Shown here piece after piece: positions 1 to 25,000 of a stretch of DNA of 63,150 bases; position 1 is the stretch's first letter, and every line of letters begins with the position of its first letter. The notes beneath the pieces are model-generated. The model had not been told where the DNA came from, searched no databases, and was given only the letters and a program-made list of their open reading frames with translations. This DNA is from a bacterium (GTDB lineage: Bacteria > UBA9089 > CG2-30-40-21 > SBAY01): NCBI GenBank assembly GCA_040755795.1, contig JBFLXS010000001.1:1-63150 (forward strand). The letters are read 5' to 3'. The position numbers and the translations under genes are program-made.

Positions 1-3000
1 CATAAGGTTGGGTATTAATGGTGAATGTGGTTGAGAAACTGCCGTAGGCATCTGTTGAGGTAAAGGTAATACTTGGTGTCGTGCCAAATTTTATACGAAT
101 AGTTTGACTGGCTCCAAATCCATTACCAGTTATGGTTACGATTAACCCTACCGTTCCTTCTGTTGGTGTAATTCCTGTAATAGCAGGCTCTATTCCGAAA
201 GTAATATAAGCCGGATAATTCGAGTTCAATCCTGTTGCCTTAATCGTTGTCGTCCCATACTTCTGGGTATCGATAGTAAAGGTAAGCGTAATTGACCCTG
301 ATTCTGCGGCAGTAACTGTATTAATGGTCAGGGTAGTCCCAAAATCTATTTGCACTAATTCACTACTTAAATAACCATTTCCATAGAGAGTAACTATCGT
401 GCCAACAGTTCCCGAGGTGGGAGTAATCTGGACTAACTTCGGTGCTATCTTAAACTGCAATGAATACGCCGATGTGCCGGTATTTATTCCCCAGGCGGTA
501 ATAGTAGTCGTCCCAATCCGTTGAACATCTACGGTGAAGGTAGTTGAGAACGACCCACATCCTTCTGAAGTAGTCATAGTAATAGTCTGCGTAGTTCCAA
601 ATTGAATTTGCACTGGCTCATTACCACCAAATCCATTACCTGCTACTGTAACCACACTACCAACTGTTCCTTCAGTTGGGGCAACTAAGATAATATTTGG
701 TCCAATAAAGTAGGTATTGCTTGCCGATACATTTACCTCTTCCACATCAACAGCAACAACCGTTGTCGTTCCATAAGGTTGTGTATCAACTGTAAATGTA
801 GTTGAGAAACTACCTTGTGCATAAGTAGATGTCGTCGTAATTGTCCTATTTGTCCCAAAGAGGATATGAATAGTATGACTTGCACCAAAACCATTACCGC
901 AAACCGTAACAATTGACCCAACATTGCCACCTACTGGTGTAACTACAGTAACACTTGCCTTTATAGTAAATATCTCCGTTGCAGAATTAAGTGGACAGGT
1001 TGCCTTAATTGTTGTAACCCCACTTTGTTGGGTATTAACCGTAAAGGTAACAGTAAATGTTCCGGAGGCATTAGTAGAAGCGGTAGTAATTGACCTGGTT
1101 GTTCCAAAATCAATCCGCACTGTTGAAGCGGAGCCAAAGCCATCACCTTCTAATATTACTATTGTTCCCACTATGCCTTGTTTTGGTGTTGATGTATAGA
1201 TTTTTGCCATAACATAGAAGACGTTAGATGCTCGTTTTTCAAGTTCAAATGGATCAAGCTGTTCTGTATTCCATGCAGTAAATGTAGTTGTGCCTGCTGG
1301 CTGTTGAACATTGAAATTATAGACTAAACTAAATGTCCCTGCCTGACTGGCATAGATACCACCATAAGGAGGATTTAGATTAAGAATATCTCCATCCTCA
1401 TCTTGGACTGTCCCAAAGTCAACATAAATTCCTTGACTTGCCGCATAACCTGTCCCAAAGAGTGTAATTTGTGTGCCTACAGTACCCGTCGTTGGGGACA
1501 CCCAAACTAACTCTGGAATTATCTTAAACCAATCATCTACCCCACCTAAATCATCATCCTCAACCCCGGAGGCAATATCTACTGCAGTAATCGTCGTTGT
1601 GCCATAAGATTGCGTATCAACTGTCCATGTAATATAAAATTCACCCTTATTATTAGCAGATGTAGTCGTAATCGTTGGTGTCCAACCAAATCCAATTTGC
1701 ACCAATCCACTACCGGTATAACCATTACCAGAAACAGTAACGATAGTCCCAACCGTGCCTTTAGTTGGACTAATATTCACAATATGCGGTAATATGCGTA
1801 AGATATCTGTTGCTTGCTCACGAGCAGTAGGTTCTTTTGGACCTATACCTGTAGCCGTCGTTGTGCCAAAGACCTGAATATCAATGGTAAATGTCTTTGT
1901 CCATGTCCCGGATGCATTAGTCGTGGCAATAGTAATGGTCGGATTATTACCAAAGGCAATACGGATATCGGCATTTTGTGTGTAGCCTCTACCTTCAATC
2001 GTAATTGTTGTGCCTACAGTCGCAGATTTAGGTGTAAGTGTGGTAATTACCGGTAAGATGAAGAAGTAGTTTCGTGCCCATTGCTCTGTGGTCATACCAA
2101 TAACTTTAATCGTTGTCGTCGCAAACGGCTGAGGTATATCTACTACACTCTGATAGAACCTCGCCGTAAATGTTCCTTGTGGAGAGACTCGCGGAGTATC
2201 TGGTTCAACAATCACAAATCCTGTATTAACAACTAAACCATACTCTGTCCCATAATCAATTTTTAGATTTTCACCATTTACACCTTCTCTACCAAAACCT
2301 GTTCCTTTAATAGTAATTATCGTGCCTATAGTTCCTGTAGTTGGACTAACTAAAGTAATTTCTGGAATTAGCACAAAGTATCTATCCTGGTCAGGTCCCT
2401 TCTGCCAGTATTCTCCCCATTTATCTACTTCCTGCGTATTAAGTCCTGTAGCCACAATCGTCTTGGTACCAAAGTATTGGGTATTGACGGTAAAGGTAAT
2501 AGCAAAAGTCCCGGTATCATTAGTTGAAACTGCGGTGATAGTCAAGGTTGTGCCTAAATCTATCTGCACTACCTCATTAGCACCATAACCATCACCTTGA
2601 ATGAGTATGAAATCACCCACCTGTGCTTTCCATCTATCTGGCACATCAAAGTGTAGCACTTCTGATTGCCGACTAACTAAGGTAATATGGGAATTTATCT
2701 TGAATAAGTCATCATCACGATGATTATCCAGATCAAATAAATCAGCCGCAATGATGGTATGTGTCCCGGCAGGCTGTGTATTTACTGTAAAGGTAACACT
2801 AAATGTTCCACAGGCATTGGTTGATACCACCGTAATAGTAGTCGTATTACCAAAAGTTACCCGCACTGTAGCCGTTGCCGCATAACCATCACCGGCTATG
2901 GTAACAATTGTCCCTACTGATTGTGCCCTTGGCGTTACCATCCAGATATGTGAAATTATCTTGAAGCAATCTACATCCCTATATTCTTCTGTATCAAATT

Positions 3001-4000
3001 GCCAATATTGCATCCCTCCTGGTATTTCACGAAATGCCTTAATCGTTATGATACCATAAGGTTGTGAATTAATCGTAAAGGTAATAGCAAATGTCCCATT
3101 ATAATTTGCTGTTTGCTGTATTATCATCCATGTTGTTCCAAATTCTATCGTTACAGTCCCTTGACGATGATAACCATTACCATAGACCATAATTGGCAAC
3201 CCTACTGTGCCGCTCGTAGCAGTCACATAAACAATGTTATGCGTAATCTTGAAATCTGTATGATATTGAGTCTGGGTAGTTTCCCCAACTGCATTAACCG
3301 TATGTGTGCCATAGCATTGTTCATCAACTGTCCATTGTGTCACAAAACTACCATTACCTGCGGCACTAACATTAGTAATACTCATATTTGTTCCAAACTC
3401 AATACGGATAAGTTCACTACCACCATAACCTGTTCCTTTAACCTCTACTGGAGTCCCAACGGTTCCTGTAAGAGGTGTAATCGTAATTCCTGAGGTAATC
3501 CTGAAGTAATCATAATCATCTGTAATCTGGCCTGTGGCTGTAATAGTAGTTGTCCCCACAGGTTGAGTATCAACCTCAAATTTTGCACTAAAGGTGCCAT
3601 TAGGTCCTACCGTGACAGTAGTAATACTTATGTGTGTTCCAAAATCAATCTGCACAATTTCATTTACCACATAACCACTTCCTGTAATAGTAACCATAGT
3701 CCCTATTTGCCCTGCAGGAGGAGTAACACTTATAATCTCTGCTTTTATAAAGAAAATATTAAATGCCTCTTGGTTGGACATACCTACAAGTGTTCCTCTA
3801 CTTTTTACTGTAGTAGTTCCTGCTGGCTGGGTATTAATAGTGAATATATAAGTAAACTGTCCAATACCATTACATGTAGTTATTATATTAAATTCAGCTG
3901 TAGTTCCAAACTTAATTTTTAGTTCATCCCCTGCATCATAACCATCACCATAAATAGTCACCCAACTTCCTACTGTCCCTTCTGTCGGTGAAACGGTATG
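1..4000 (-). repeat. Super-repeat A, copy 1 (the clearly alignable part of a 5,610-nt, 21-domain unit).
   Basis: It aligns colinearly with 5611-9610. For example, gatgtatagatttttgccataacatagaaga occurs at 1191 and 6801 (offset 5,610). The antisense landmark PVVG at 2343 matches 7953 (offset 5,610). 3167 matches 8771 (offset 5,604, a 6-nt in-frame indel). By eye about 80% nucleotide identity, fading beyond about 4000/9600. Confidence 0.8.
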
Positions 4001-7000
4001 AATACGGGCGATAATAGTAAAACTACCCATCAAAACTCTGCCTGAAGTAAGTCCTGTTACCGTAACACTCTTTGTTCCAAAGGTCTGAGTATCAACGGTA
4101 AATGTCAACGAGAAACTGCCATAGGCATCTGAACTAACCGTAGTTATAGTCGTATTAGCCCCAAACCTGACATGGATAGTCTCTGTAGCGGCAAATCCAT
4201 CACCTCTAATAGTAACTATTGTAGTTACTGTGCCTATGGTTGGCGTAAATAGTGTAAATTGCGATAGGATATTAAATGTATTTCTTGCCTGCTGACCTGT
4301 ATTTATACCCCTGGCAGTAATGGTTGTAATCCCATATCGTTGAGGATTGATAGTAAATGTAGTACTGAATGACCCTGAATCAGTCGTCTTCGTCACAATG
4401 ATACTCACCGTTGTTCCAAAGTCAACCTGAATCTTTTCACTTGCTCCAAATCCACTACCGGCTACTGTAACTATTGACCCCACCGTATTGGCTTGTGGCT
4501 CAACCTTGAATAATTCAGGTTTGATAACTATCGCCCGAGAATCTCGCACCAAATCAACCTCATTTATATCTGTGGCGATAATGGTTGTCGTGCCGTAAGG
4601 TTGCGTATTGATTGTGAAAGTAATTGTCCATGAGCCTTGTGGTTTAGAGATAACCGTTGTAATCGTCTTTGTCGTTCCAAAGTCAATCTGAATAGTATGA
4701 GTTGCACCAAATCCATTACCTGCCACTGTAATGATAGTTCCTACCGTTCCTTCTGTTGGCGTGTAAAGTATTATCTGCGGCAAGATAGTGATGGTAGCAA
4801 ATGCCTCTTCACTGCCCTTTGCCTTGATGGTCGTAATTCCATATCTCTGTGTATCGATAGTAAATGTAGTCGTGAAGCTACCTTCAGCATAGGTTGAAGT
4901 AGTTTGAATACTTGGTGTCGTGCCAAAATCAATATGAACCTTCTTGTATGCCCCATAACCATTGCCTTTGACCGTAATAATCGCACCCACAGTTCCTGAT
5001 GTTGGCGTTACAAAGATAACATTTGACTCGATACTTAAAGTCCCTTCTGCCTTTATTACCTTACTATCGCTATGAGCAACAACAGTAGTAATTCCGTAGC
5101 GTTGTGTATCTATGGTAAAGGTAGTAGTGAAGCTACCTTCAGCATAAGTTGAGGTAGTTTGAATAGTTAGTGTTTTCCCAAACTCTATCCGAATGATGGT
5201 TGAGGCATCATAACCATTACCTTTAACCGTAATCACCGTCCCCACAGTTCCAGAGGTAGGCGTAATAAGTATGATATTAGGTAGAATAGTTACACTTCCA
5301 TAGCAATGTAAGCCCTGGTCATCACCATGAGCACCTACTGTCGTTGTGCCATAAGGTTGAGTATCAATAGTAAATGTTGTGGAGAAACTTCCTTGTGCAT
5401 AGGTTGAGGTAAGTTGAATTGTTGGTGTTGTACCAAATTCTATCCTTATCGTCCTTGAGTTGCCATATCCATTACCTTGAATAGTAATGATTGTTCCAAC
5501 CGTGCCTTGCGTTGGTGATAAGTAGATAATATTGGGTAAAATAGTCAATGTCTTCTCTGCATTAATACCATCGCCATGTCCCTTTACTGTAGTTGTCCCA
5601 TAAGGTTGAGTATCGATAGTAAATGTGGTGGTGAAGCTACCTTCGGCATAAGTTGAAGTAAGTTTAATAGTTGGTGTTGTCCCAAACTCTATACGAATCC
5701 TTCTATAAGCCTCAAAACCATCACCCCTCACCGTAACTACCGTTCCAACTGTCCCTGTATTAGCGGTAACATAAACGATATTTGGCAGGATAAAGAATGT
5801 CAGGTTATCGGCACAGGCACCTGTAATTATCCCTGTGGCTTTAATAGTTGTCACACCATAAGGTTGTGTATTGATGGTAAATGTAGTGGTGAAACTACCT
5901 TCTAACTCTGCTGTCACAGTGGTAATCGTCATTGTCGTGCCAAAATCTACCTGGATTAACTCACCGGCTTTATATCCACCACCGCGTAATGTAACTACTA
6001 CACCCACCGTCCCTTCAGTTGCAGTTATTGAGACTAATTGTGGCTTGATAACATACTCAAACTTCCAACTGCTCTTACCGGTCATCACCCCAATTGCCTC
6101 AATAGTCGTCGTGCCTATCGGTTGAGTATCAACCGTAAAGGTGGTTGTAAAGCTACCGCAGTATTCTGCTGAAACTAAGGTAATTGTCTCTGTCGTTCCA
6201 AACTTAATTCTTACTAACTCACTTGAACCATAACCATTACCTCGAACTGTAACTACACTTCCAACGATTCCTTCTTTTGGAGTAATCAGTATAATCTCTG
6301 GAATAATTGTGAGTCTATCATCATCTGAGGCAATATCTCCTGCAATAGACTGGACATCCACTGCCACAATGGTCGTCGTGCCATAAGGCTGTGTATCAAT
6401 GGTGAAGGTGGTTGAGAAACTACCATGTGCATAAGTAGAAGTCATAGTAATCGTCTCATTAGTTCCAAAGAGTATATGAATCGTATGGCTGGCGCCAAAA
6501 CCATTACCTGTTACCGTAACTATTGTCCCTACAGTTGCTACCGTTGGTGTAACTAATGTAATTATTGGCTTAATCCTGAATGATTCCGTCGCAGAGTTCA
6601 GTGGGCAGGTTGCGGTAATTGTGGTATTGCCACTTTGCTGAGTATCAACCGTAAAGGTAATTGTCCATGTTCCAGAGGCGTTAGCAGAAACCGTAGTAAT
6701 TGACCTCGTCGTTCCAAAATCAATCCTCACGGTTGAAGCAGAACCAAACCCATCACCTTCTAATGTCACAATTGTGCCCACCGTGCCTTCTTTTGGTGTA
6801 GATGTATAGATTTTTGCCATAACATAGAAGATATTGGAGGCTCGTTTTTCAAATTCTTTAGGTCCAATTAAAATAGAATTCCAGGCGGTAAATGTGGTTG
6901 TGCCTGCTGGCTGTTGAACATCAATTGTATATATTAGACTGAATGTCCCGGCAAGAGAAGCCGTCCCATACACAGGTAACCAGGTTGCGCTCTCAGTTGC

Positions 7001-10000
7001 GTAGTCTTTATCTAATACTGTTCCAAAATCAACATATATTCCTTGAGTAACTGCATAGCCTGTGCCAAAGAGTGTAATTTGACTTCCCACAGTCCCTTTA
7101 GTCGGTGAAACCCAGACTAACTCTGGAATTATCTTGAACAGGTCATCTACTCCACCAAGGTCATCATCTTCTACTCCCGAAACAGTATCAGTAGCATAGA
7201 TAGTCTTTGTCCCATAGGATTGTGTATCAATAGTAAAGGTAATATTAAATTCACCCTTTGGATTTGCCGTTGTAGTTGTAATCGTCCGTGTCCAGCCAAA
7301 TCCAATTAATACCTCTCCACCACCCGTATAGCCGTTACCGTAAAGTGTAACTATCGTTCCTACTGTTCCAATAGTTGGAGTAACACTGACAATATGCGGT
7401 AATATGCACAAAGTATCTGTTGCTTGTTCGCGAGCAGTAGGTTCTTTTGGTCCTATAGCCGTAGCCGTTGTTATGCCAAATGCCTGAATATCAATGGTAA
7501 ATGTCCTGGTAAATGTCCCTGAATCATTAGTCGTAGCAATAGTAATGGTCGGATTATTACCAAAGGCAATCTGAATATCTGCATTTTGTGTATAGCCTCT
7601 ACCAGCAATCGTAATTGTCGTCCCTACAGTAGCAGACTTAGGAGTAAGTGTAGTAATTATGGGTAAGATAACGAAGTAATTGCGTGCCCACTGTGCAGTA
7701 CTACTTCCATAAACGGTAATAGTTGTCGTCCCAAATGGCTGAGGAATATTTACTGATGAAATGTCAAATTTCAAAGTAAATGTTCCTTCTGAAGTTACAT
7801 ATGGTTGTTCAAGACTATATGGCTCAATTCCATCAGCTCCAATAAATGGCTCCGTTCCAAACCCAATCTTTAAATCTTCACCATCAATTGGATTCCTTCT
7901 CCCAAAACCAGTTCCCTTAATAGTAATTATAGTTCCTACGGTTCCCGTAGTTGGAGTAACTACAGTAATTTCTGGAATGAGAACAAAGTATCTATATTGG
8001 TCAGGTCCTTTATTCCAGTATTCACCCCACTTATCTACTTCCTGAGTGTTAAGTCCTGTAGCCACAATCGTCTTGGTGCCAAAGTATTGGGTATTAACCG
8101 TAAAGATAGTAGCAAATGTCCCGGCATCATTAGTTGAAATTGTGGTTATACTTATGGCTGCACCTAAATCTATCTGCACTACCTCATTAGCACCATACCC
8201 ATCACCCGTAATAAGTATCTCATCTCCTACCTGTGCCTTCCATCTATCTGGCACATCAAAATGAGGCACTTCTGACTGCCGACTGACTAAGGTAATATGC
8301 GAATTTATCTTAAATTCATCAATATCACGATGATTATCCAAATCATATAAATCAGCCGCCACAATGGTATGTGTCCCACTATGTTGTGTATTCACCGTAA
8401 AGGTAATACTAAATGTCCCACAGACATCTGTTGATACCACCGTAATAGTAGTAGTTTGACCAAATGTTACCCGCACTGTAGCCATAGCCGCATAACCATC
8501 ACCGGCTATGGTTACAATTGTTCCTACTGACTGTGCCCTTGGTGTTACTAACCAGATATGTGAAATTATCTTAAAGGAATCTATATCTCGATAGTCTGAA
8601 TTATCATAATCTTGAACAAGAATTCCCCTTTCGCGATATGCCTTAATCGTTGTTGAACCATACGGTTGGCTATTTACCGTAAATGTAATACTAAATGTCC
8701 CATTATAACTTGCCAACTTTTGTTTCATCGTTAGGGTAGTCCCAAATTCTATCGTTACTGTCCCCTGACGATGATAACCATTTCCATAGACTGTAATTGG
8801 CAATCCTACTGTGCCTTCTGTAGCTGTCACATAAACAATATTATGCTTAATCTTGAATTCCCGCTGAGACTCTGTCGTAGTATTCATACCAACTGCCTTT
8901 ACGGTATGAGTTCCATAGCACTGTTCATCCACTGTAAATTGGGTAGTAAATCTACCATTTACTTCTGAGGTAATTGTAGTAATGGTTCGATTTGTTCCAA
9001 ATTCTATGCGGATAAGCTCACTGCCACCATAACCTGTTCCACTAACCGTCACTATTGTTCCCACTGTGCCAGTATAAGGTGTAATTATAATACCAGATGC
9101 AATTGTAAAGTAGCTATAATCTTCCGTAATCTGACCTTTGGCATTAACAGTAGTTGTCCCAACCGGCTGAATATCAACCGTAAATGTGGCACTAAATGTC
9201 CCATTATGTCCTGCCGTCGCAGTTGTAATAGTCTTATGTGTTCCAAAATCAATCCGCACAACTTCATTTGCTAGATAACCTGTTCCTTTAACTACAACCT
9301 CCTGTTCTATCGGTCCAGAAGTAGGCTCAACACTTATCACATCAGCCATAATGAAGAATTTATTATATGCCTCTTGCTCAGAAGCATTATATCCTGGTTG
9401 TCCTTTACTCTTAACAGTCGTAGTCCCTGCAGGTTGAGTATCAACCGTAAAGTAATGTGTGAATTGTCCATTTACATTGCAAGCATAATCTTTAGGAATT
9501 TCAACATCAGTCCCAAATGTAAGTCTTATCTTTTCACCATCTGCATATCCATCACCCATTACCGTTACTTTCGTCCCTACTGTCTGCTGATATGGACTAA
9601 CCACATATATCCTGGCAATAACCTTGAAATAGCCATAATCTACTCTTCCACTATTCATCCCTGTTGCCTTTACGGTATGAGTGCCATAAACCTGTAAATC
9701 TACCGTAAAGGTAGTTGAAAAACTACCGTAGGCATCAGTAGAAGTCATCGTAATCGTAAGAGTTTTTCCAAAATCAATACAAATACCCTCACTTGCACCA
9801 TAACCATTTCCGGTAATTGTTACAATATCATATATCTTCTCACCACTAATAGCATTAATTAGATATTGGACCACACCACTGGTAGGAGTAATAAGTGTAA
9901 TCTTCTGTAAGATAGTAAATGTAAAGGTAGCAACAACATTTTCCGCTACTGACAATGTCGATGTTCCTCTACCTTTAACAAGGGTAGGACCATATTCCTG

Positions 10001-13000
10001 AGTATCTACGGTAAAGATAACCATAAATGCCCCTGCCCCATCTGTTCGGGTAGTAGTAATGGTTAAAGTTGTGCCAAAATCAACCTCTATGCCTTCTGAT
10101 GTACCAAAACCATTACCCGCCACAGTAACCAGGATACCAACAGTCCCTGATTGAGGAGTAACTGAAACAATATTAGGTAGTATCCGCAGGGTATAAGTTG
10201 AATATTGCGCCCTGGTATGGACACCAACAACTTTGATAGATGTAGTGCCATAAGGTTGAACATCAATAGTAAATGTTTTTTCAAAGGTGCCATCAAATGC
10301 ACTCATCCAAATAGTTCTTGTCGGATTAATTCCAAATTCTAACCGTAATTGCTCATTATAACCAAAACCTGTTCCTTTTACTTGAATTGATGCACCTACT
10401 GTTCCTGAAAGTGGCGCTACATCATATATATGCGGTAAGATAGTAATAAGTGTCGAAGTGCCATCCTGTGAAGTAAGACCAACCGCAAAAATAGTAGTTG
10501 TGCCATAAACCTGTGCATTTATAGTAAATGTAGTTGTCCATGACCCATTATTCTCTGCTACGGTAGTAGTTATTGTATTCTTAGTCCCAAATTGTATCCG
10601 AATTTGTTCATTAGAATAATACCCATTACCACTTATGGTAATTATTGTTCCTACACTACCCTGCGTTGGTGTAACAGAAATAATCTCTGACCTTATCCTG
10701 TAAATATATCTTTCATCAGACTGCCTGGTGGATGACCCTACGGCTATAATACTTGTAGTTCCATAAGATTGGGTATTAACGGTAAATATGGCGGTAAAAC
10801 TACCAAAGGCAGTGCTGGTAACCGGAGTAATAGTCCGTTCCGTCCCGAAGATAATACTAATCATTTCAGTAGCACCAAACCCATTACCCGCAACTGTAAC
10901 CCAACTACCAACAGTTCCTTCTGTAGGAACTATAGAGACAATATTAGGCAGGACAACAAAAGTAGAAGTTGCTGTAGCCGGATCTATCACACCTAAAACA
11001 GCCGCATCAGTTGCTATAACAGTAGTAGTTCCATAAGGTTGTGCATCTATCGGGAAGGTAACGGTGAATGAACCACCCTCTGTCATATCCATAGATGCAA
11101 TATTATAGGTAGTCCCAAAGTGAATCTTGGCATCATTTGCCGGGTAATTGAATCCATTACCATAAACCGTAACTACTTTACCGACTGTCCCGGAAGTAGG
11201 AGTAACATAAACTATTTGAGGTAGAATTTCATAGTTATTCATTCCAGAAGAAGATACATCCTTAGATATACCTCTTTCATCTATCGCCAGAATATCCCTT
11301 AAGGGATAATGTCTCTGTTCAGGAACCGTAAATGTAGTAGAGAAACTACCCTGTGCATAAGAAGATGTTAGTGTCACTGTCGCTCTATCAATTCCAATCT
11401 TACCAAATAACACAGCAATAGTCTGGGAGCCATTAAATCCATTACCGGCTATGGTAACCTTACTACCCACCGTCCCGGACCGTGGTGTATAGAAGACAAT
11501 ATTAGGCAGAATCTTAAATGTATGTTTGGCACTAATGCCTTTTGTATCAACTGCAAGAATAGTCATAGTTCCATACGGTTGTGTATCAATAGTAAATGTA
11601 ACCGTAAATGAACCAGCACTATCCGTTGATACTGAAGTAATACTTGATGTCGTTCCAAAATCTACTCTCACATAATCTGACCCTGTAAATCCATCACCCT
11701 TAATGGTAATTATAGTACCAACCGTTCCCTGATTTGGAGAAACATCAATTATTCTGGATAACATCTTAAAGAAGACGGTTGCAGTAGTTCCCGTATTTAA
11801 TCCTTTAGCCACAATAGTAACAGTTCCAACCGGTTGTCCATCAGCACTAAATGTAGCACTAAATGAACCATAATCACCTTCAGTTTGTACTTCGGTCCTA
11901 GTTATAGTAGTTCCAAATGAGATTCGTATTACTTCATTTGGCATTCCGACTCCACCAAACCCATTACCGGCAATGGTAATCTCAGTTCCCACATTTCCTT
12001 CTTGTGGATTAAAGACAACAATATTTGGTTGTATCTTAAACTTATCTACTGCCTCTACATTTTGTGCATCCTTAGCCTTAATCTTACAAGCATCACCACT
12101 TGCATAGTCTCCGTATGCATCAGCCCGCTGAGTATTGACGGTAAATGTAGTTGTCCAACTACCATACGCTGTAGAGGTAACAGTTGTAATTGACGAATGC
12201 ATACCAAATTGTACGACAATAGGACTTGTGGCATTGAATCCATTCCCACTCAAAGTCACGATTGTTCCTACAGAGCCTTGAGCCGGGCTGACATAGATAA
12301 TCTTTGGCAGTATCTTGTAGGTATTGGTAGCAAAGCCTAATGAGCCGTAGCCGGTGATGGTAGTTGTGCCGTAAGGCTGGGTATTGATGGTAAATGAAAC
12401 ACTAAATGTGCCGTTGACATTTGCTGATGTCGTCTGAATCGTCGGACTCGTTCCAAAGCCAATCCGCACCAACCCTTCTTTCGGATACCCATTGGCAGTA
12501 ATCGTCACCACACTCCCAACCGTGCCTTCGGTTAACTCTACCTTCCAGATTGCCGGCAGAATAGTAAAGTAACCGTAGTCTGATTTTTCTGCTGTTTCAG
12601 ATGCTTTAACCGTAGTTGTCCCACCTGGTTGAGTATTTACAGTAAATGTAATAGCAAATGTTCCATCTGCACTCGATTCTGCTGTCTGAACCTGATGTAT
12701 TTCATCTGTTCCAAAATAAATGTATATCTCGGATATACTTTGTCCGAAACCATTTGCTTCTCCTGTAACTATTGTCCCCACTGTTCCTTGAAGCGGTGAG
12801 ATTAATCTAACCTTCGATGTAATCTTAAATGTATTAGTAGCAGCCGATTCGCCACAGACAGTTCCTGTACCTATGATGAGTTTATTACCATAGCTCTGCG
12901 TATCTACGGTAAATATAGCGGTAAGCAATCCTATGTTATCTGCGGTAGCAATAGTAATAGTCCTTGTCTTACCAAAACCAATTAGAACCTGTTCTGATAC

Positions 13001-16000
13001 AGAATAACCGTTACCTGTTATGGTCACTTGAGTGCCTACAGAACCACTTGTTGGAGATACACTTATAATATTAGGTTTGATTGAGAAGGAGAAGGTACTT
13101 GTTGCCCTTTGTTCAGGACGGAATATACTTATCCCAATTATTGTTGTTGTTCCATAAGGTTGAGTATCTACCGTAAAGGATGTGGTAAATGAACCACTTG
13201 CTTCTGAAGTAAGCGTAGTAATTGTAGAATTAATACCAAACGCAATTCTTAATGCCTCACTCTTACCAAATCCATTACCATAAACTGTTACTTGACTCCC
13301 TACCGTTCCAAAAGTAGGATTAACACCCGTAATCTTAGGTATAATCTTAAAGTAACTAAATGCAGAATGTTGTGTTTGTGTGCCTATTGCCTCTACAGTA
13401 GTAGAACCATAAGGTTGGACATTTACTTTAAAGAAAGTAGTAATTGTTCCTATATTAGATGACTCCAATAACACATCATCAATATAAGGTGTTTGTCCAA
13501 AATGTATCCTTACTAGCTCTGTTGGTCCGAATCCATTTCCTTCTATAGTCACCGTTACACCTACCGTGCCGATTGATGGCGTAACAGAGGTAATATTAGG
13601 TATTATCTTATAGGACTTTGTAGATACTCTTCCACTATTCATCCCTGTAATTGTTACTGTCTTAGTTCCATAAACCTGAGTATTTACCGTAAATGTTGTA
13701 GCAAATGTTCCCACCCCTGAAGTAGAAACAGTAGTAATGCTTTCCGTATTGCCAAAATCTACCTCTATTAATTCACTTTCACCATATCCTGTGCCTTGAA
13801 TAGTTACAAAACTCCCTACTGTTCCCTGCATTGGGATAAACATAGGAATATCTATCTCTATTATAAACAATTTATCTGCTTTATGATTTACTATATCCTG
13901 CAAGCCATAGGCAGTTATCGTCTTTGTTCCATAGAATTGAGTATCTATAGTAAAGGTAGTATTGAATGTGCCACCTGTTGAATTTATAGTCACCAGAGTA
14001 ATAGTTTGCGTCGTTCCAAAATCAATCCTGATTTGTTCATTAGCACCATACCCTGTCCCTTCAACACTTACTATACTCCCCACCGAACCACAAGAAGGTG
14101 TAATAGTTATCTTAGAAGTGATAATGAAGATATTTTCTGCCTTCACTCTTTCTGGATTAGGATCCATCCCTCTAACGAGAACAGTAGTAATTCCATAAGG
14201 TTGTGAACTAACGGTAAACTGAATAGTAAATGTCCCATTTTCTGATGCTAAAGATTGTCCGCTATATGGATGTACTTGTGTATTACCAAAATCCAATCGA
14301 ATGATATCGCTTACTTTATATCCATCACCCATTACAGTAACGCCTGTTCCAACTGTCCCGGTTGGCGGTAAAACAGAAAATACCTTTGGCAAAATCTTGC
14401 AATAATTATACGCTACTACGGTTGAAGTAATACCATACGCCTTTATCGTATGTGTTCCCCATCTCTGCTTATTTATAGTAAAGACAGCGGTAAATGTGCC
14501 AAAGGCATCAGGTGTAGCGGTAGTAATAGTCAATCTCGTTCCAAAATCTATCTGAACTGTTTCGCTTGTCTTATAACCCATACCTCTAACCGTAATAGAT
14601 GTTCCTACTGTCCCTTGCTGTGGTGAAACAAAGAAAATAGTAGGTTTAACCGTAAATGTCCCTGTATCTGATGTTTGTGAAGTAAGACCATAAGCACGAA
14701 TAGTGGTTATACCCTGCGGTTGAGTATCTACCGTAAAGATAGCGGTGAATGTCCCATTGACATTAGCACTTGTGGTAGTAATAGTACGGGTAGTGCCAAA
14801 GTCAATCTGCACAAGCTCACTTTGACCAAATCCATCACCAGTAACAGTTACTAAATCACCTATTGTCCCTGCTGGTGGTACTATTTGAGTAATATGTCCT
14901 ATTATACTGAAGACAGTAGATGTAGCCCTTACATAAGGACGCGAGTAATTAAAAGCAATTATTGTAGTAGTTCCTGCAGGTTGAGGAATGTTAATGACAA
15001 AGGTTACATTTGTAAATGTTCCCCAATCTCCCCCATTAACATACCCTCCTGTTATTAGTGGTATTGTTCCAAAATCAATTTGAATCGAACTAGCACCTGA
15101 CCAGAAACCATCACCACTTATGGTTACTGTTGTTCCTACGGTTCCTTTGGTTGGTGTTACATTATAAATTCTTGGAACTAATGTAAATGAAATGGTTGCA
15201 ACACGATTAGACTCAAGTCCTGTAACAGTAACTATCTTTGGACTGGGATTATAACTTTGATTATCTACGGTAAATGTAGTCGAGAATGAACCATAAGCAT
15301 CTGTTGAGGTCATTGTAATGGTCTTTGTTGTCCCAAAGTCTATTTTAATCGATTCTGACTGTCCAAAACCATTACCCGTTATGGTTATAATAGTAGTAAT
15401 AGGTGTTCTATCAGGGGTAATAAGGGTAATATTAGAAAGTATATCAAATACCTTGAACGCCATCTGACCACTATTTAATCCTTGAGCAGTAATAGTAGTA
15501 GTCCCATATCGTTGTGTATCAATAGTAAATGTAGTTGAGAATGAACCATTGAAACTGGTAGAAGTAAAGGTAATTGTTCGGGTAGTGCCAAAGTGGATAT
15601 GGATTAACTCAGATACCCCAAAACCATTACCTGCAACAGTAATAATCTTACCTACGGTCCCTGATAATGGTTCTACTAACCAGATTGCCGGTAAAATAGT
15701 AAATGTCGCCTCATCTGTTACTACCGTTGGCTGGGTTATATCAATAGCCTTAATAGTAGTAGTCCCGTATAATTGTGTATCTACTGTAAATGTGCAGGTC
15801 CAACTCCCTTCTGCATAAGTAGAGGTTAACTGAATAGTTTTAGTCGTGCCAAAATTAATCTGGATAGTAGTGCTTGCTCCAAACCCGTTACCTCTTACTG
15901 TCACTATCGTCCCTACTGTTGCCTTATCTGGACTAACCAGAATAATATTTGGTTCGATAGTAACTGTGCCATAAGCAGGATACTCAGATATCTGACCTGT

Positions 16001-19000
16001 TGCTTTAATAGTGGTAATACCATAAGGTTGCGTATCTATGGTAAATGTAGTAGTAAATGAACCTATTGAACTTGCGGTTACACTCTTGATACTATAACTA
16101 GTCCCAAAGTCAATCCGTATCCCCTCACTTGCCTCAAATCCATCACCTTCTAATCTCACAATAGTACCCACTGTGCCTGTCTTTGGACTGATTAAAGTAA
16201 TTGCCGTAATTATCTTGAATGAAGAAGCCGCTGTTCCTGCTACAGGACAAATGGCTAAAATAGTTGTAGAACCTAATGGTTGGGTATTCACAGTAAATGT
16301 AGCTGTAAATGTTCCATAGGCATCCGTGGTAACCTGTGTAATATTTGGGGTAGTTCCAAAATCAATCTGGATAGACTGAGTAGCCCTAAATCCACTACCT
16401 CTTACAGTAACAATTGTTCCTACAGGACCTTCAGAAAGTATTACTGAGAAAATATTCGGTTTGAAGAAGAAAATATTTTCTGGAAGTAAATCCGGTAGAC
16501 CAGTCTTAGAACATTTTATCTTAACCGTTGTGGTCCCATAAGGTTGTGCGTTAACCGTAAAGATTATTGTTGTAGAACCTATCGAATCTCCTGTATACGG
16601 TACACCGGTATAATCTTTATTAGTCCCAAAATCAATCCAAATATTGTCTGGAGTATCGTATAATCCATTAGCTGCAATAGTAATAACTGTCCCTACTGTC
16701 CCTGATTTAGGTGTTACCAACCAAACCGCTGGTTCTATCTTAAATGTATAGGTAGCAAATAAGCTTGTATTGAATTTATCCGTTATCTTCACATTCCAGG
16801 TCCCATACGGCTGGGTATTAGCGGTAAATACAGTTGAGAACGAACCATTTACCGCACTCCAGATAGTAACACTCAAAGTCTGCCCAAATTCTATCACTAT
16901 CTCTTTACTTGAACTAAAGCCATTACCCGCCACACTAATCGGTGTACCTACTGTTCCAAAGTCAGGTGTGTATAAAAATACTTTATGGAGAATCTTGCAC
17001 GAGATTGTAGCTGGCCAGGAAGATATAAGTCCTGTAGCCATAACCGTAGTCGTGCCATAAGGTTGAGCATCAATGGTAAATGTGGTGCTGAATGAACCAT
17101 AGGTATTGGCTGTTACTGTAGTTATCGTCTTGTTTGTGCCAAAATCTATCCCCACCAACTCACTGCTACTAAATCCATCACCGGTCAAGGTTACTACTGT
17201 CCCTACCGTTCCTTCTGTCGGCGTGATAGCGGTCAGATGTGTCAAAATACGATAAATATATCGTTCTGAGAAAACACCGCTACTCATACCCACTGCCTTG
17301 ATAGAGGTTGTGCCGTAAGGTTGTGTATTTACGGTGAATTTCACGCTAAAGCTACCCTGAGCATAAGTCGAGGTAGTGACAACCGTTGGTGATGAACCAA
17401 AGATAATATGCACTAACTCACTGGCACCAAAGCCATTACCTCGCACCGTCACAAAACTCCCTACTGTGCCTGAAGTTGGAGTAATGGAGAAGACATACGC
17501 ATTTATCGCTACCGTGCCTTTAGCAAATACCCCTGGTAATCCAAAAGCCTGAATAGTGGTAATCCCACGCGGCTGGGTATCTATTGTAAAGGTAGTAGTG
17601 AAACTACCCTCGGCATAGGTTGATGTCTGTTGAATCGTTGGAGTAATCCCAAAGGCTACACGAATAAGTGTGCTGGCATTAAACCCATTTCCTCTGATAG
17701 TAATGATTGTCCCTACACTTCCTTCGGTAGGACTGATATAAATAATATTCGGCAGGATAGTAAATGTGCCTTCTTTATTTGCAGAACCACTTGAAGCCTT
17801 AATGGTGGTTATTCCCCAGCTCTGTGTATCTACCGTAAAGGTAGTTGAGAAACTACCTTCTGCATAAGTTGATGTCAGACGAATATCTGTTTTGTTGCCA
17901 AAGTTGATACTAATAGTTGTCGAAGCCTCAAATCCATTGCCAGTAATGGTAATGGTTGTTCCCACCGTTCCTTCTGTCGGCGTAATCAAGGTAATATTAG
18001 GCAGGATAGTAAATGTGCCAGAAGCATCTTCACTACCGTGTGCCTTAATTGTCTTCACAGAGTATGGTTGAGTATCTACCGTAAATGTGGTTGTCCAGCT
18101 ACCTTCTGCATAAGTAGAAGTAGATTGAATACTTGCAGTTCTCCCAAAATCTATCCAGATGGCCTTTGATGCCCCAAAACCATTACCTCTCAAGGTAACT
18201 ATTGTTCCCACTGTCCCTGTCTTTGGACTAATCTGAATAATGTTTGGCGTAATTGCAATCGTGCCACAATCAGACTCATCGCCATGAGCAACAACCGTAG
18301 TTATGCCAAAAGGCTGGGTATCAATGGTAAATGTGGTGGTGAACGACCCACACCCTTCACTGGAAACCTGTTGAATGGTGATGGTGGTGCCAAAATCTAT
18401 CTTGATTGTCTTTGAAGCACCATAACCATTACCGCTGATAGTGATAATCGTTCCTACCGTTCCTTCAATTGGTGATAAATAAATAATCCTTGATTTAATA
18501 AAGAATGTCTTTTCTGCCTGGGTGACAGTTCCATAGCCAGTAACAGTTGTGCTACCATAGGGCTGGGTATCAATAGTAAAGGTGGTGGTGAAACTACCCT
18601 CGATAGATGTCTGTGTAGTCTGGATAGTTGGGCTTCTACCAAATCCTATACAAATATCTTCATTTGCCTTAAACCCATCACCTCTAACCGTAACTACAAT
18701 TCCAACCGTTCCTTCAGATGGCGTAACATAAACAATATTAGGTTTAATTAATACCTCAAGGTTCTCTGCCCCAAATCCTGATGAGCACCCGGTTGCTTTG
18801 ACAGTGGTCGAACCATACGGTTGGGTATCAATGGTAAATGTTGTTGTCCAGCTACCTTCTGCAACCGCAGAGACTACAGTAATCGTTTGTTTTGAACCAA
18901 AATCTATTCTCACTAATTCATTTGCCTGATACCCACCACCGCGCAAGGTTACGATTGTCCCAACCGTGCCTTGCATTGGAGTAACTGAAACCAATCCTGG

Positions 19001-22000
19001 CGTAATACGGAAGGTAACTGTAGCTACCTGTTGCCATGTAAATATACCCACCGCAGTAATCGTTGTTGTCCCTAAACTTTGAGTATCAATGGTAAATGTA
19101 GTGGTAAATGACCCATAGGCTTCAGTTGAAATAATGGTAATAGTCTTTGTATTGCCAAAGTGGATGTGTATCCCTTCAGTTGCCCCAAAACCATTACCGC
19201 TAACCGTAACTATACTTCCTACCGTCCCGGATAGTGGGGTAACCAATATAATATTTGGTTTAATGGTAAAGCTATTTGTCGCACTTACTAACTCACCATC
19301 TATCGTCTCAAAAGCAGTAATAGTTGTAGTTCCGTAAGGTTGTGTAGTAATAGTAAAGGTGGTAGTGAAGGAACCGTAGGCAGTTGTAGATACTGTTCTC
19401 AGATTAAGTGTTGTGCCAAAATCAAGTTGCACCGTAGTAGCACTTCCGTAACCATTACCCCTAACCGTAACAATTGTCCCTACTGTTCCCTCTGTAGGTG
19501 TAACCGCAAAGATAGCCGGCAGTATCTTGAATACCTTAGTTGCTACTTCTGGCAATCTACCCCGACCGGTAATTGTAGTTGTCCCAAACCGTTGTGTATT
19601 AATGGTAAAGATAACCGTAAAGCTACCACTTATATTCGCTGATACCTGAACAATGGTAGGTGTAGTGCCAAATGTTATGCTCACCGTTTCAGAAGATGAG
19701 AATCCGGTTGCTTTTATCGTAACAACTGTTCCCACTGTGCCTGAAGTAGGTGTTAATAACCAAATTTCAGGCAGAATATAGAAAGTACTTGTTGCCCTAT
19801 TGCCATATCCCTGTCCATATTCAATTGCTACGATAGTCGTAGTTCCTGCTGGTTGCGTATCAATAGTAAAACTCCGTGTGAATGTTCCATTAATCGTAGT
19901 CGTTGTTGTAGGGGCATTAGTTTCATCGGTCATAGTCGTGCCAAAGGTAACAAATATATTTGTAGTTGCCAGGAATCCATCACCAAGGACCGTTATCAGT
20001 GTTCCCACTGTTCCTCTGGTGGGAGTTACTAAGCAAATATTGGGTAATATGGTAAATGTCTGTGTTCCTATCTGATTATTAGATAATGTTCCTGTGCCTA
20101 CGATTAATTTACCATCTCTTGTCTGGGCATTAACTGTAAACACACCGGTCAATGTCCCCCTTAATTCACCTGCGGTTATGGTTGCAATATTTTGAGTGCT
20201 ACCAAAACTTATTTGAACCTTATCATTTTTAGCATAACCATTGCCATAAAGTGTAACAATAGTCCCTACCGTTCCTTGAGTAGGTGAAACTTGATATAAT
20301 TTAGCCACGATACAGAAGGTATTGGTAGCCGCACGATGTTCTGTTGGAGCATTCTGTCCCACCACCACAATAGTCGGAGTCCCATAAGCCTGGGTATCTA
20401 CCGTAAATGTAGTATCAAATGAACCATTCCCTGAAGAAGTAGTCCAGCCAATACTCGTATACATACCAAATTCTATCTTAATTAGTTCACTGGCACCATA
20501 ACCATTCCCTTTCACTGTTACTTGTGAACCAACTGTCCCAGAAGTAGGTTGTATTTCAGTAATATTTGAAATAATATTAAATGTCCCAAAGGCTGAATCT
20601 GAAATAGGCGGAGTCCAAACGGTAATAGTTGTTATTCCATACGGTTGAGCATCAATCTTAAATACAGATGTAAATGTCCCCTCTCCAGTAGTATCTACTC
20701 CACTTTCTATAGAAATAGTTCTGTGATTACCAAAGTCAATCTGTATCCCCATTATAGGTCCATATCCTGTCCCACTTACTGTTACCGAAATTCCCACTGT
20801 CCCAAAGGGAGGTGAAACAAGTATAATATTAGGCATAATCTTAAACTTACCCACATCTTGTCGCTGAGTTCTTATACCATATACTCTGACCGTATGAGTG
20901 CCATAATATTGAGTATTTACTGTCCAGGTAGTTGAAAATGTTCCGTTTTCACTGGTAGTTACCTGTGTAATAGTAGAGGTATCTCCAAAATCAATCTGTA
21001 TTAATTCACTGCCACCATATCCATCACCTGTCACAGTAACTAAACTACCCACTGTCCCAAATGTAGGAGTAACTGAAGTAATATGGACATCTATACGGAA
21101 TTCCCAATTATCCTTCACAGAACTATGTCCTGATGAATCTATGGCAGTAATACTCTTTGTCCCAAAAACCTGAGTATCCACTGTCCAGGTAGTAGAGAAA
21201 CTCCCTTCTGCATAGGTTGAGGTAGTAGTTATTGTTTGATTAGCACCAAAGATAATACGAACTAATCCTGTAGATTCATAACCATTACCTCTAATAGTAA
21301 CAATAGAACCTACTGTCCCACAAAGTGGAGTAACATTAGTTACATTGGCTAATATAGTAAAGGTTCCATAAGAATTATTCTCACCAAGATCAGGCGTATA
21401 TCCATCTTTATGTCCTACTGCTTGAATAGTCGTTATTCCATACGGCTGGGTATTAATCTGAAAATCAAACATAAAGCTACCTGAAGAAGTAGTAGTAGTT
21501 CCAGGAGGAATATTTAATGTCTTGCCAAAATAAATGTAAATGTTAGAAAGAGGAGAATAATAACCATTACCATATACGGTTACCAAACTACCCACTGTCC
21601 CTTGAGCAGGTGTAACTAAAGTAAGTTTATGGGTTATCTTAAATGATGTATCTGTAGCAGTGGCATTAGATAGCACTCCTACGACTAAAATAGTGGTTAT
21701 ACCCCAGGGTTGTGTATCTACAGTAAATGTAGTCGTCCATGAACCGGCTGACTCGGCACTAATGATAGTAATTGTCGGATTTGTTCCAAAGGCTATCCGA
21801 ATTAATTCTGATGCCTGGTAACCAATACCTCTTATCGTTACCATTGACCCAACTGTCCCTTCTTTTGGTGTAACTAAAACAATACTTGTCTTGACATAGA
21901 AAGATGCGATGGCAAAGGTAATCCTATCAGTAGCCGTAATCGTATTAGAACCATAAGGTTGTGTATCTACTGTAAAGATGCAGGTAAATGTTCCCAGACT

Positions 22001-25000
22001 ACTACTACTTACGGTCATAATAGTCTTAGTTGTTCCAAAATCTATCTGAATCAATTCTGATGCACTAAAACCATTACCAGTAATAGTAACTCCTGTACCT
22101 ATTGTTCCATCCGATGGATATACTGAAGTAATTTTACCAATAATACCAAATATATTTTCTGCTAATTGTGTAGCTTCAGATATTGATTGAACAGTAATAG
22201 TAGTAGTCCCTGCTGATTGGGTTAAAATAGTAAATACAGCACTAAATGTACCTGCAAGAGAAGGATTGTCCTTATAAATTACAATTCTATTATAGGTAGG
22301 CTCAAAACCAGGCAATGCCGCTGATATTGGAATTGTCCGCAGGTTACCAAAATGAATAACTAATTTATTATCTGCCGTAGCTAAAGGATTACTCTTTCTA
22401 TATCCATCACCCCAAATAGTAACCACACTTCCAATCGTCCCTGATGTAGGGCTTACCTGCCATATTCTTGGAATTATGCAGAAGGTTTGAGTATGTGCCG
22501 CCCCTGACATATCCGAAGTAATAATAATATGTTGCGTCCCAAAAAGTTGAGTATCTGCTGTAAAGGTAACTGAAAAACTACCGCAGGCATCTGTTGAAGT
22601 CTGACTAATAGTAGAAGTTGTTCCAAATTTTATATAAATACCTTCAGTTTGTGCAAAACCGTTACCCGTAATGGTAATCAAAGTACTCACTATGCCACTG
22701 GTAGGTGTAGAAAGTGTAATATCTGATTTAATAAAGAATGTAGAAGTCGCTATTTTACCGCTATTCAAACCAGTGACAACAATAGTCGTTGCACCATAGG
22801 GTTGAGTATCAATACTAAAGGTAGTTGAAAATGACCCGGAGGGAGTCGTCGTAGCATACGATACCGTCTGCGTGGTACCAAACTTAATATGTATCTGTTC
22901 GGTAATTCCAAATCCTGTCCCAATTATAGTAACTTTTGTATTTACAGTCCCGGTATCAGGTGTAACTAAATGAATATTAGGTAAGAGATTATAAGTGCCT
23001 GTATTTTCTACTACTGAACAACTCAAATCTTGTGCCTTAATCGTCTTAATACCATAAGGTTGGGTATTAACCGTAAAGGTAGTGCTAAATGAACCTTGTG
23101 CCGCAGAGGTAATGGTAGTAATAGAAGGAGTTGTCCCAAAATGAATATAGATAAGGTGTGTCGCCCCAAACCCATTCCCGGCTACGGTAACAATACTACC
23201 TACTGTCCCGGAAGTTGGAGTAATCGAGAAGATATTTGGTTGGATAACAAATATCCTTTCTTCTGCAGAGATATTCGATTTAATATCCGTAGCCTTAACA
23301 GTCGTGCTACCATAAGGTTGAGTATTAATAGTAAAGGTTGTAGTAAATGACCCGGTGAAAGATGCACTCGCAGTAGTAATAGTATTTGTAGTTCCAAACT
23401 TTATTCGCACCCGCTCATTAGCAGTAAATCCAGAACCTTGTATAGTAACTATTGTCCCTACTGAACCTCTCGTTGGCGTTATATCTACTATATATGGAAT
23501 TATCCTAAAGAATATCGTTTGTGTTCCTACTGGAGTAGATGCGATAGCAAGGATAGTTGCAGTTCCTAACGGCTGTGTATCTACGGTAAAGGTAATGGTG
23601 AAACTACCTAATATATCTGTTGAGGTAAGAACTATACTGGGAGTCGTCCCAAAATCAATCTGAATATTCTTTGTTGCCTCATAACCATCACCATATAATG
23701 TTACTACCATCCCTACAGAACCTTCAGTAGGTGTAACCCAGGTATGTGGTTTAATGACGAATTTCTCTTCGGCAAAGATAAGAGTTTGACTGGCTATTAC
23801 ACTTATAGTTCCATAAGGTTGAGTTTCTAACTTATGTATCTGGTCCGCCGGAAAACTACCATCAGAATTCATTAAAAATGCATCAGCATAATAAGAAGTT
23901 ATACCTAAAACAATCCAACTTACTTGACCACCACCAAATCCATTACCATTTACAGTAATCATCCTTCCAATTGTTCCTTCAGTTGGCGTAACTAAGAATA
24001 GATGTGGCAGGATACCAAAGCTACTTGTAGCCTCGATATTTGAATCTGTTGTATCCCTGGCAGTAATAGTAAATGTCCCAAACGGCTGAATCGGTGCTGT
24101 AAATGTCGTTGAGAATGAACCATAAGCAGTCACCGAATTTGTTCCTAACTCTATAGTTTGTGGATTATTGTTTATACTCACCCCTGCCCAGGTTATCTGC
24201 ACATAACTCCCTGTCCCAAAGCCATTACCCGCAACAGTAACTATCGTCCCTACCGTCCCTTGTGCTGGAGTTACTTGATAGATATTGGGCAGAATAGTAA
24301 ATGGCCTTGATGTTGAGATAGGATTGCCCTGATATGCTGTCACTGTCGTTGTCCCGTAAGGTTGGGTATCTACGGTAAATGTGGTTGAGAAACTACCTTC
24401 GGCATAGGTTGAGGTCAGGGTCAAAGTCGGTGTTGTGCCAAAGATAATGCGGATGGATTGACTTGCACCATAGCCATTACCAGCAATAGTAACGATACTC
24501 CCTACTGTGCCTGATGTTGGTGTCAATGCAATAATCGTCTGCAATATCCTCACTGTCAGGTTATCTGCCACCCCTTGTGAACTACAACCTGTTGCCCGGA
24601 CAGTTGTCGTGCCGTACGGTTGCGTATCAATCGTAAATGTCGTGGTAAAGCTACCTTGAGAATCAGCCGAAACCGTAGTAATACTTATCGTCCTACCAAA
24701 ATCAACCCTGACTAATTCATTTTCTTTGTAACCAATACCGCGTAAAGTAACAATTGTGCCTACCGTCCCTTCGCTGGGCGTAACTGAGTCTAACTGCGGG
24801 CTAATGACAAAGTAGGTTTGTGTAGCGGCTTGCGTCTGCATACCAACCGCTAAGACAGTCGTTGTCCCCAGTGGTTGAGTATTTACCGTGAATGTGGTTG
24901 AGAACGACCCAAAGGCAGTTGAAGTAACTTTTGTAATCGTCCTGGTAGTGCCAAATAGTATATGTATTGACTCACTTGCCCCGTAGCCATTACCAGAAAC

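Follow-up and report, generated by a model that had tools for sequence, protein, structure and literature searches.

Proteins built from long tandem arrays of small modules usually expand by duplicating several domains at once in the middle of the array, a mode of repeat expansion found by domain autocorrelation (Bjorklund et al. 2006, PMC1553488). The super-repeats of titin (7 and 11 domains) and nebulin (7 modules) lie in arrays of this kind, made of β-sandwich or comparable modules, and in them domains one unit apart are closer to each other than neighbors are. Here we describe the same pattern in a bacterial gene. The stretch of DNA analyzed, which we call the window, comprises 63,150 nucleotides (nt), positions 1 to 63,150 of contig JBFLXS010000001.1 (NCBI GenBank assembly GCA_040755795.1; GTDB lineage Bacteria; UBA9089; CG2-30-40-21; SBAY01), and lies within a single gene that encodes a long array of immunoglobulin (Ig)-like TIG domains, in which domains 21 positions apart resemble each other far more than neighbors do. 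The reading that we favor, to which we assign a probability of roughly 0.7, is that a 21-domain block of this giant TIG fiber gene was duplicated head to tail, repeatedly and in register, and that the copies then diverged and were homogenized in patches.

Comparable bacterial proteins have been described from two directions. Very long tandem Ig-like stalks, such as the 221 TIG domains found here, are typical of fibrillar adhesins and giant Ig-stalk surface proteins (Monzon et al., bioRxiv 10.1101/2020.12.07.414375), and the RII region of MpIBP/MpAFP contains ~120 identical 104-residue repeats (PMC4083281). The giant genes that a preprint describes from Omnitrophota and related candidate phyla (West-Roberts et al., bioRxiv 10.1101/2023.11.21.568195) share with the present one a length of tens of kilobases, an origin in an uncultivated lineage and repeated extracellular-type domains; elongation by domain duplication is listed there as an open question, and in a term search of its text neither TIG arrays nor Desantisbacteria nor super-repeats came up.

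The 21-domain blocks of a giant TIG gene

A six-frame scan of the window revealed one minus-strand open reading frame (ORF; 2..63148, with codons running from 63148 down to 2) of 21,049 codons, which contains no stop and is open at both ends. The other five frames harbor 866–2,799 stops each, and no closed ORF of at least 150 amino acids (aa) is present anywhere in the window. Because a single frame is free of stops, the other frames are full of them and closed ORFs are lacking, the window comes from the interior of one gene of >63 kb. All features described below lie on the same strand. The tandem IPT/TIG (PF01833) array occupies 2..58129 (aa 1674–21049 of the fragment). Within 2–11221, the PF01833 profile matched 10 stretches with an E-value of 1e-51 and 173 bits against a gathering cutoff of 20.9, and at the opposite end of the array it scored 93.5 bits. 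A hidden Markov model grown from the window's own sequence resolved the array into 221 tandem domains of ~86 aa each. An AlphaFold model of domain 193, for which the alignment consisted of 140 domains of the same array, is predicted with a pLDDT (predicted local distance difference test) of 95 as a seven-strand β-sandwich, and the PDB structures that it matches in fold, among them intimin D00-D0, a large-adhesin extender (6xi3) and Bap, are generic Ig-like modules recovered at weak E-values of 6e-3 or worse. The model supports assignment of the TIG domains to the Ig-like fold class, without a specific solved relative. In an all-versus-all comparison of the domains, the mean identity, which we use as background, is ~0.40.

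The first-pass annotation of this DNA had proposed that positions 1–11220 hold two copies of a 5,610-nt, 21-domain super-repeat, with positions 1–4000 colinear with 5611–9610. The colinearity is borne out with slightly different limits: the upstream copy 1 (domains 186–200, 5600..9619) is colinear with copy 2 (domains 207–221, 2..4012), the last domain of which is clipped by the window edge, and the offset between them is exactly 21 domains. We refer to this pair as block A. The off-diagonal at 5.6 kb that such a repeat predicts is seen at both the nucleotide and the domain level. Indeed, when the offsets between shared 12-mers are tallied, 5,610 nt stands out with 270 matches and 5,604 nt with 38 more (positions 3034–3639), against ~17–20 at typical nonrepeat offsets, and the domain identity matrix contains 26 pairs above 60% identity at lag 21, whereas almost all other lags greater than 2 give 0–3 such pairs (lag 49 gives 5). 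Apart from lag 21, no lag produces a clean diagonal in the array. By contrast, the two-unit span did not hold over its whole length: 9620–11220 and 4013–5610 (domains 180–185 and 201–206) are not recognizably homologous by rank (ranks 4–179). Of the 21 pairs of block A, 15 are visible, copy 2 running off the left edge of the window, and the head-to-tail junction is consistent with abutting copies.

The offset had been described as exactly 1,870 codons, apart from a 6-nt in-frame indel at one landmark. The value of 5,610 nt is indeed the main one and corresponds to 21 domains; in the codon alignment it applies to 736 of 760 aligned codons over copy-2 positions 731–3019, interrupted by two short compensated indels. 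It is not constant, however, being 5,604 over 3026–3787 and 5,607, 5,601 or 5,598 elsewhere, with every step in frame. The three landmark pairs of the first-pass annotation align accordingly, with 51 of 56 nt identical at 1191/6801, 50 of 56 at 2343/7953 and 47 of 56 at 3167/8771, the last at an offset of 5,604.

At the level of individual domains, each of the 13 consecutive pairs formed by 186–198 and 207–219 is a reciprocal best match among 220 candidates; the next pair, 199/220, ranks fourth in both directions. In a multiple alignment of the domains, 27 pairs of mutual nearest neighbors are 21 positions apart, no other lag has more than 2, and column-bootstrap support is 95–100% for domains 188–196. 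Positional homologues, which are 54–88% identical in block A compared with 26–53% for neighbors, thus cluster together, as had been anticipated for a unit copied as a multidomain block rather than as a single domain. Tandem Repeats Finder and the other repeat-finding scans recovered mostly the first-order domain repeat, the 5.6-kb period being beyond their reach.

The second-order periodicity extends well beyond the region in which it was first noticed. A second block, B, spans 19523–30820 and consists of copy 1 (domains 105–126, 25058..30820) and copy 2 (domains 126–147, 19523..25306), which abuts copy 1 head to tail, with offsets of 5,514–5,550 nt. Its lag-21 pairs number 22 in succession, one more than the 21 domains of the unit, and block B is therefore an entire unit duplicated head to tail, in frame and without a spacer. 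Reciprocal best matches were obtained for 16 of the 22 pairs. Domains 105, 126 and 147 form a triple with a mutual similarity of 0.60–0.69, as expected for domains that flank or form a junction and if a domain that was similar at both ends mediated the crossover, and their divergence is too high for breakpoint mapping.

Register, constraint and probable homogenization of the units

A fainter layer connects the two blocks. When both were removed from the identity matrix, the highest remaining lags were 49, 70 and 91, all congruent to 7 modulo 21. Comparison of unit A with unit B gave a single cyclic-shift peak of 0.438, above a permutation null with a maximum of 0.417 ± 0.005 (p ≤ 0.001, with the scan of 21 shifts included). 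A distinctive domain type recurs at positions 105, 126, 147, 175, 196 and 217, and the unit boundaries were anchored on it. The units so delimited are U1 (domains 105–125, 25307..30820, 5,514 nt), U2 (126–146, 19775..25306, 5,532 nt), U3 (147–174, 12560..19774, 7,215 nt), U4 (175–195, 6821..12559, 5,739 nt) and U5 (196–216, 1211..6820, 5,610 nt), followed by the start of U6 (217–221, 2..1210), which runs beyond the window and has an in-phase identity with U5 of 0.635. U3 contains 28 domains, and an unbiased gap scan, with a plateau for gap starts at 152–156, places its surplus of ~7 domains approximately around 153–162 (roughly 15695–18250).

In all 10 pairwise comparisons of U1–U5, the in-phase register ranks first of 21 cyclic shifts, with z scores of 44 for U1–U2, 24 for U4–U5 and 3.9–5.1 for the weak pairs. 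Because this identity measure was normalized by the longer domain, the analysis was repeated on 85 shared consensus columns, a length-blind measure by which 10 of 10 pairs again rank first, with z scores of 4.1–6.8 for the weak pairs. The registers close transitively (42 + 28 = 70). Domain length chooses the same register, with Spearman coefficients of 0.43–0.85 and rank 1 of 21 for 10 of 10 pairs, and phase-specific lengths are kept across the old units (90–96 aa at phase 14, 82–85 aa at phases 0 and 12). Outside the strong blocks, best partners lie at lags 21, 42 or 63 in 9 cases compared with 3.2 expected (p 0.005), other lag series giving 1–5, and the block A pairs 187/208, 191/212, 192/213 and 194/215 have domains 166, 170, 171 and 173 as their next-closest relatives. 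Identity between old units is 0.42–0.49 in phase and ~0.38–0.42 out of phase. These data support the notion that blocks A and B belong to a common register in which at least five units follow one another (domains 105–221, from ~30.8 kb to 1). A 21-domain period of the array as a whole was rejected, lags 42, 63, 84 and 105 being at background over its entire length; the period is absent from TIG domains 1–104 of the same protein, in which upstream units (domains 42–104) have no consistent phase. The period is regional, confined to domains 105–221.

Both copies of each strong block are supported as being under purifying selection, as first proposed for block A from a few codons. In that comparison of 1191–1246 with 6801–6856, the three synonymous changes and the L/F and V/I replacements were all found again, along with a fourth synonymous change in a flanking codon. 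Over 1,255 codons of block A, the copies are 72% identical in amino acids and 74% in nucleotides, with a synonymous divergence (dS) of 0.87 (0.76–0.99), a nonsynonymous divergence (dN) of 0.21 and a dN/dS of 0.24 (95% interval 0.20–0.28). The corresponding values over 1,902 codons of block B are 66%, 70%, dS 0.91, dN 0.27 and dN/dS 0.30, and nonhomologous domain pairs, taken as a reference, show proportions of synonymous (pS) and nonsynonymous (pN) differences of 0.68 and 0.41. Local positive selection was rejected, as no 30-codon window has pN > pS. A pairwise dN/dS is shared by the two copies and cannot apportion the constraint between them.

Synonymous divergence is strongly heterogeneous along the blocks (p = 1e-8 in block A and 4e-16 in block B). 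In block A, tracts of 116–682 nt at 86–89% identity lie amid saturated synonymous sites; the longest, 682 nt at 7901..8584, is 87% identical to 2291–2974 and is a candidate for later homogenization. Block B contains a 657-nt tract (28259..28915) that is 91% identical to 22730–23386. It includes an exact run of 83 nt, the longest shared run in block B, compared with 35 nt in block A. The domains that it covers, 113 and 134, are 98% identical in amino acids with a dS of 0.20, while the flanking pairs are saturated and at background. This tract is likely a gene-conversion tract, and it may be a present-day site for unit-sized deletion or duplication. That the lost pairs 115/136, 122/143 and 110/131 had been overwritten from a donor was also considered and rejected, as none has a close partner elsewhere in the array. 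Collectively, the copies are old and constrained on both sides, and parts of them have probably been rehomogenized.

Other repeats in the window and related genes

The N-terminal part of the fragment (58130..63148, aa 1–1673) consists of ~14 copies of a β-rich repeat of ~100 aa with the motif GLxFxLKVxxxDELGN. Two subtypes alternate to give a two-domain unit, identities being 0.31–0.34 at even lags and 0.26–0.28 at odd lags. Searches of Pfam and NCBIfam returned no family above threshold for this repeat, its sole family match being MG4, below threshold. At the right edge of the window, 63011–63148 and 62747–62884 are nearly identical (132 of 138 nt, offset 264 nt), a partial tandem copy clipped by the window end. 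The parts of the fragment scanned with Pfam and NCBIfam contained no enzymatic, protease, RTX or other further families.

Within the TIG array, a homogeneous subtype in which neighbors are alike forms three clusters, at ~41.8–45.9 kb, 17.5–19.5 kb and 4.5–6.0 kb (domains 47–62, 148–155 and 199–204, respectively). Domains 51 and 52, for example, are 81% identical in amino acids and 79% in nucleotides, and Tandem Repeats Finder reported a period of 255 at 4833–5445, within the last cluster. These clusters look like local single-domain expansions. Similar ones occur in a related giant gene on contig JAHIZN010000456.1 (sampled stretches L011 and L012).

That contig (55.8 kb), together with JASEHA010000001.1 (57.2 kb), belongs to unclassified bacterial metagenome-assembled genomes. 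Three sampled stretches of the former (L005, L011 and L012; 45.6 kb in total) are each open end to end, as is a 19.2-kb stretch of the latter (L009), and all are filled with TIG domains, so both contigs look like carriers of comparable giant TIG genes. A set of ~400 domains from large or giant TIG genes related to this one gave no clean multidomain diagonal; in L005, the top lag is 21, weakly (0.384 compared with 0.361). The nearest proteins to a 926-aa query are partial fragments annotated as Candidatus Desantisbacteria, at 35–40% identity, and BLAST against the window identified none that is orthologous to a specific position. Most relatives are "partial" proteins that span entire short contigs. 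One Desantisbacteria contig of 14.3 kb (JACQYQ010000083.1, GCA_016208095.1) carries two overlapping TIG-array ORFs, 1–9597 and 9554–14261, which probably derive from a single larger gene interrupted by a frameshift or an assembly error. The longer relatives, found with an alignment of the subtype, match at 36–40% in every register without colinear orthology, and therefore the duplications could not be dated. Protein-level scans with domains 201–206 and 217–221 for sequence beyond the left edge returned no relatives.

Origin of the 21-domain period and comparison with known systems

Head-to-tail copying of a 21-domain block of ~5.5–5.7 kb, repeated several times over, would have produced roughly the C-terminal half of the in-window array (domains 105–221). 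Diverged domains one unit apart would likely have served as sites of unequal homologous recombination or of replication slippage. Once a first unit had been duplicated, positions 21 domains apart would have offered the best-matching substrate for recombination, so that later events would have stayed in register and the period would have perpetuated itself, much as in the higher-order repeats of satellite DNA. Under this scheme, U1/U2 and the domain sets 186–206 and 207–227 would represent the youngest or most homogenized relationships; the copies would have diverged under purifying selection on the fold and with small in-frame indels, one unit would have gained seven domains, and patchy gene conversion would have rehomogenized a few tracts. 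As the period is absent from TIG domains 1–104 and from the sampled relatives, historical contingency fits better than a structural requirement.

Several observations weigh against this account. No recombination junction is identifiable at the nucleotide level, the end of block A copy 2 and both gene termini lie outside the window, and no orthologue was found that would date any of the events. The register, its anchors and the seven-domain gap were picked post hoc from the same identity matrix, and the 10 unit comparisons amount to ~3 independent tests because U1 and U2 are not independent of each other, nor are U4 and U5. The excess identity in the old layer is small, ~0.04–0.08 over out-of-phase values. 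Finally, the occurrence of exactly 21 domains in both strong blocks could mirror a selected period.

The last point is the core of a titin-like alternative, in which the 21-domain unit, estimated at 80–90 nm if each Ig-like domain measures ~4 nm, was selected to match a periodic partner or a regular higher-order assembly, with each phase having its own role. That two separate strong blocks have exactly 21 domains, that at least five units hold one register, that phase-specific domain lengths persist in the old units and that purifying selection acts throughout are all compatible with such a period. However, a dN/dS below 1 is expected for any folded domain, and position-specific constraint is weak, given the narrow gap between in-phase (0.42–0.49) and out-of-phase (~0.38–0.42) identity of old pairs. 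In addition, U3 tolerates seven extra domains, and neither TIG domains 1–104 nor the related giant genes sampled have the period. We therefore regard this alternative as unlikely. Its boldest form, in which the unit is a selected structural period of a micrometer-scale bacterial fiber with distinct phases that, for example, space binding sites or match a lattice, is a similarly long shot; if true, it would account for the exact preservation of 21 domains in independent expansions and for the lasting phase-specific lengths, and it would make the gene a bacterial analogue of the molecular ruler of titin. That the strong blocks are instead two unrelated two-copy segmental duplications that share their lag by chance, with the faint layer a product of post hoc fitting and recurring domain subtypes, agrees with the background values of the whole-array means at lags 42, 63, 84 and 105 and with the small effect in a register derived from the same matrix. 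Yet the register between A and B passed a permutation test that covered all 21 shifts, domain length, a separate feature, points to the same register, the length-blind measure strengthens the signal rather than dissolving it, and domains 166, 170, 171 and 173 are next closest to four block A pairs, which makes a shared lag by coincidence doubtful.

Two further explanations concern the similarity itself. Gene conversion alone, acting between domains that are not positional homologues, would produce the mosaic of dS and the discrete high-identity tracts, but it is highly improbable as the sole source: the copies are colinear over 13–22 consecutive domains at a constant lag, even in pairs with saturated synonymous sites, the regions between tracts carry the lag-21 signal too, phase-specific domain lengths agree, and donors for the diverged pairs were not found elsewhere. 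Repetitive giant genes are also hard to assemble, as the fragmentation of the relatives in short-read assemblies illustrates, and a repeat could have been wrongly duplicated or misjoined. The copies differ, however, at 26–30% of nucleotides, mostly by synonymous or conservative changes, none of their indels shifts the frame, and no stop interrupts it over 63 kb. For block A, such an artifact is excluded by the longest exact run of 35 nt, taken together with a nucleotide divergence of 26% and an unbroken frame, and even with the 83-nt run of block B we consider its probability negligible.

Repeated in-register duplication of the 21-domain block thus remains our preferred account, and it sets the gene beside several known systems. 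With titin and nebulin it shares detection by domain autocorrelation and an expansion in midarray by several domains at a time. U1–U5 also exceed the three successive units at constant period that characterize a titin- or nebulin-type super-repeat, with the qualifications that the old layer is weak, that its register was selected post hoc and that one unit runs to 28 domains. The differences are substantial: the host is a bacterium, exons are absent, the unit, at 21 domains and ~5.6 kb, is much larger, the period is restricted to one region of the array and has no known periodic partner, and the old units retain almost no position-specific identity. The arrangement also recalls the higher-order repeats of satellite DNA in its multimonomer unit, in the in-register unequal exchange proposed here, in unit copies that are closer to each other than the monomers within them, and in patchy homogenization. 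In contrast to satellites, it is coding, its protein fold is under purifying selection, and its units are far fewer and more diverged.

Among bacterial proteins, the domains of fibrillar adhesins are near-identical, whereas mutual identity in the present array is only ~40%. Both ends of the gene lie outside the window, and hence the sequence shows no adhesive tip, anchor, RTX region or secretion signal. A giant RTX adhesin of the LapA or MpIBP type, secreted by a type 1 secretion system (T1SS), was rejected as a classification, with a mean interdomain identity of ~40% and no RTX repeats in the parts scanned, the C terminus being outside the window. To our knowledge, a higher-order 21-domain unit has not been described for fibrillar adhesins or giant Ig-stalk proteins. 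In contrast to the giant genes of Omnitrophota, the parts of this fragment scanned with Pfam and NCBIfam harbor no enzymatic or protease domains.

These findings provide a quantified account of how a bacterial gene of >63 kb, which may encode a surface fiber, has grown, namely by in-register copying of 21-domain blocks of ~5.6 kb and not by a stutter of single domains. The divergence of its domains (~40% identity between neighbors) explains why the gene can be assembled and why it is stable, and the 657-nt, 91% identical tract is a predicted site at which length polymorphism of unit size could continue to arise. In comparison with the systems discussed above, this is a known kind of repeat expansion, evolutionarily ordinary for fiber proteins; both the unit and the bacterial gene that carries it are unusually large.

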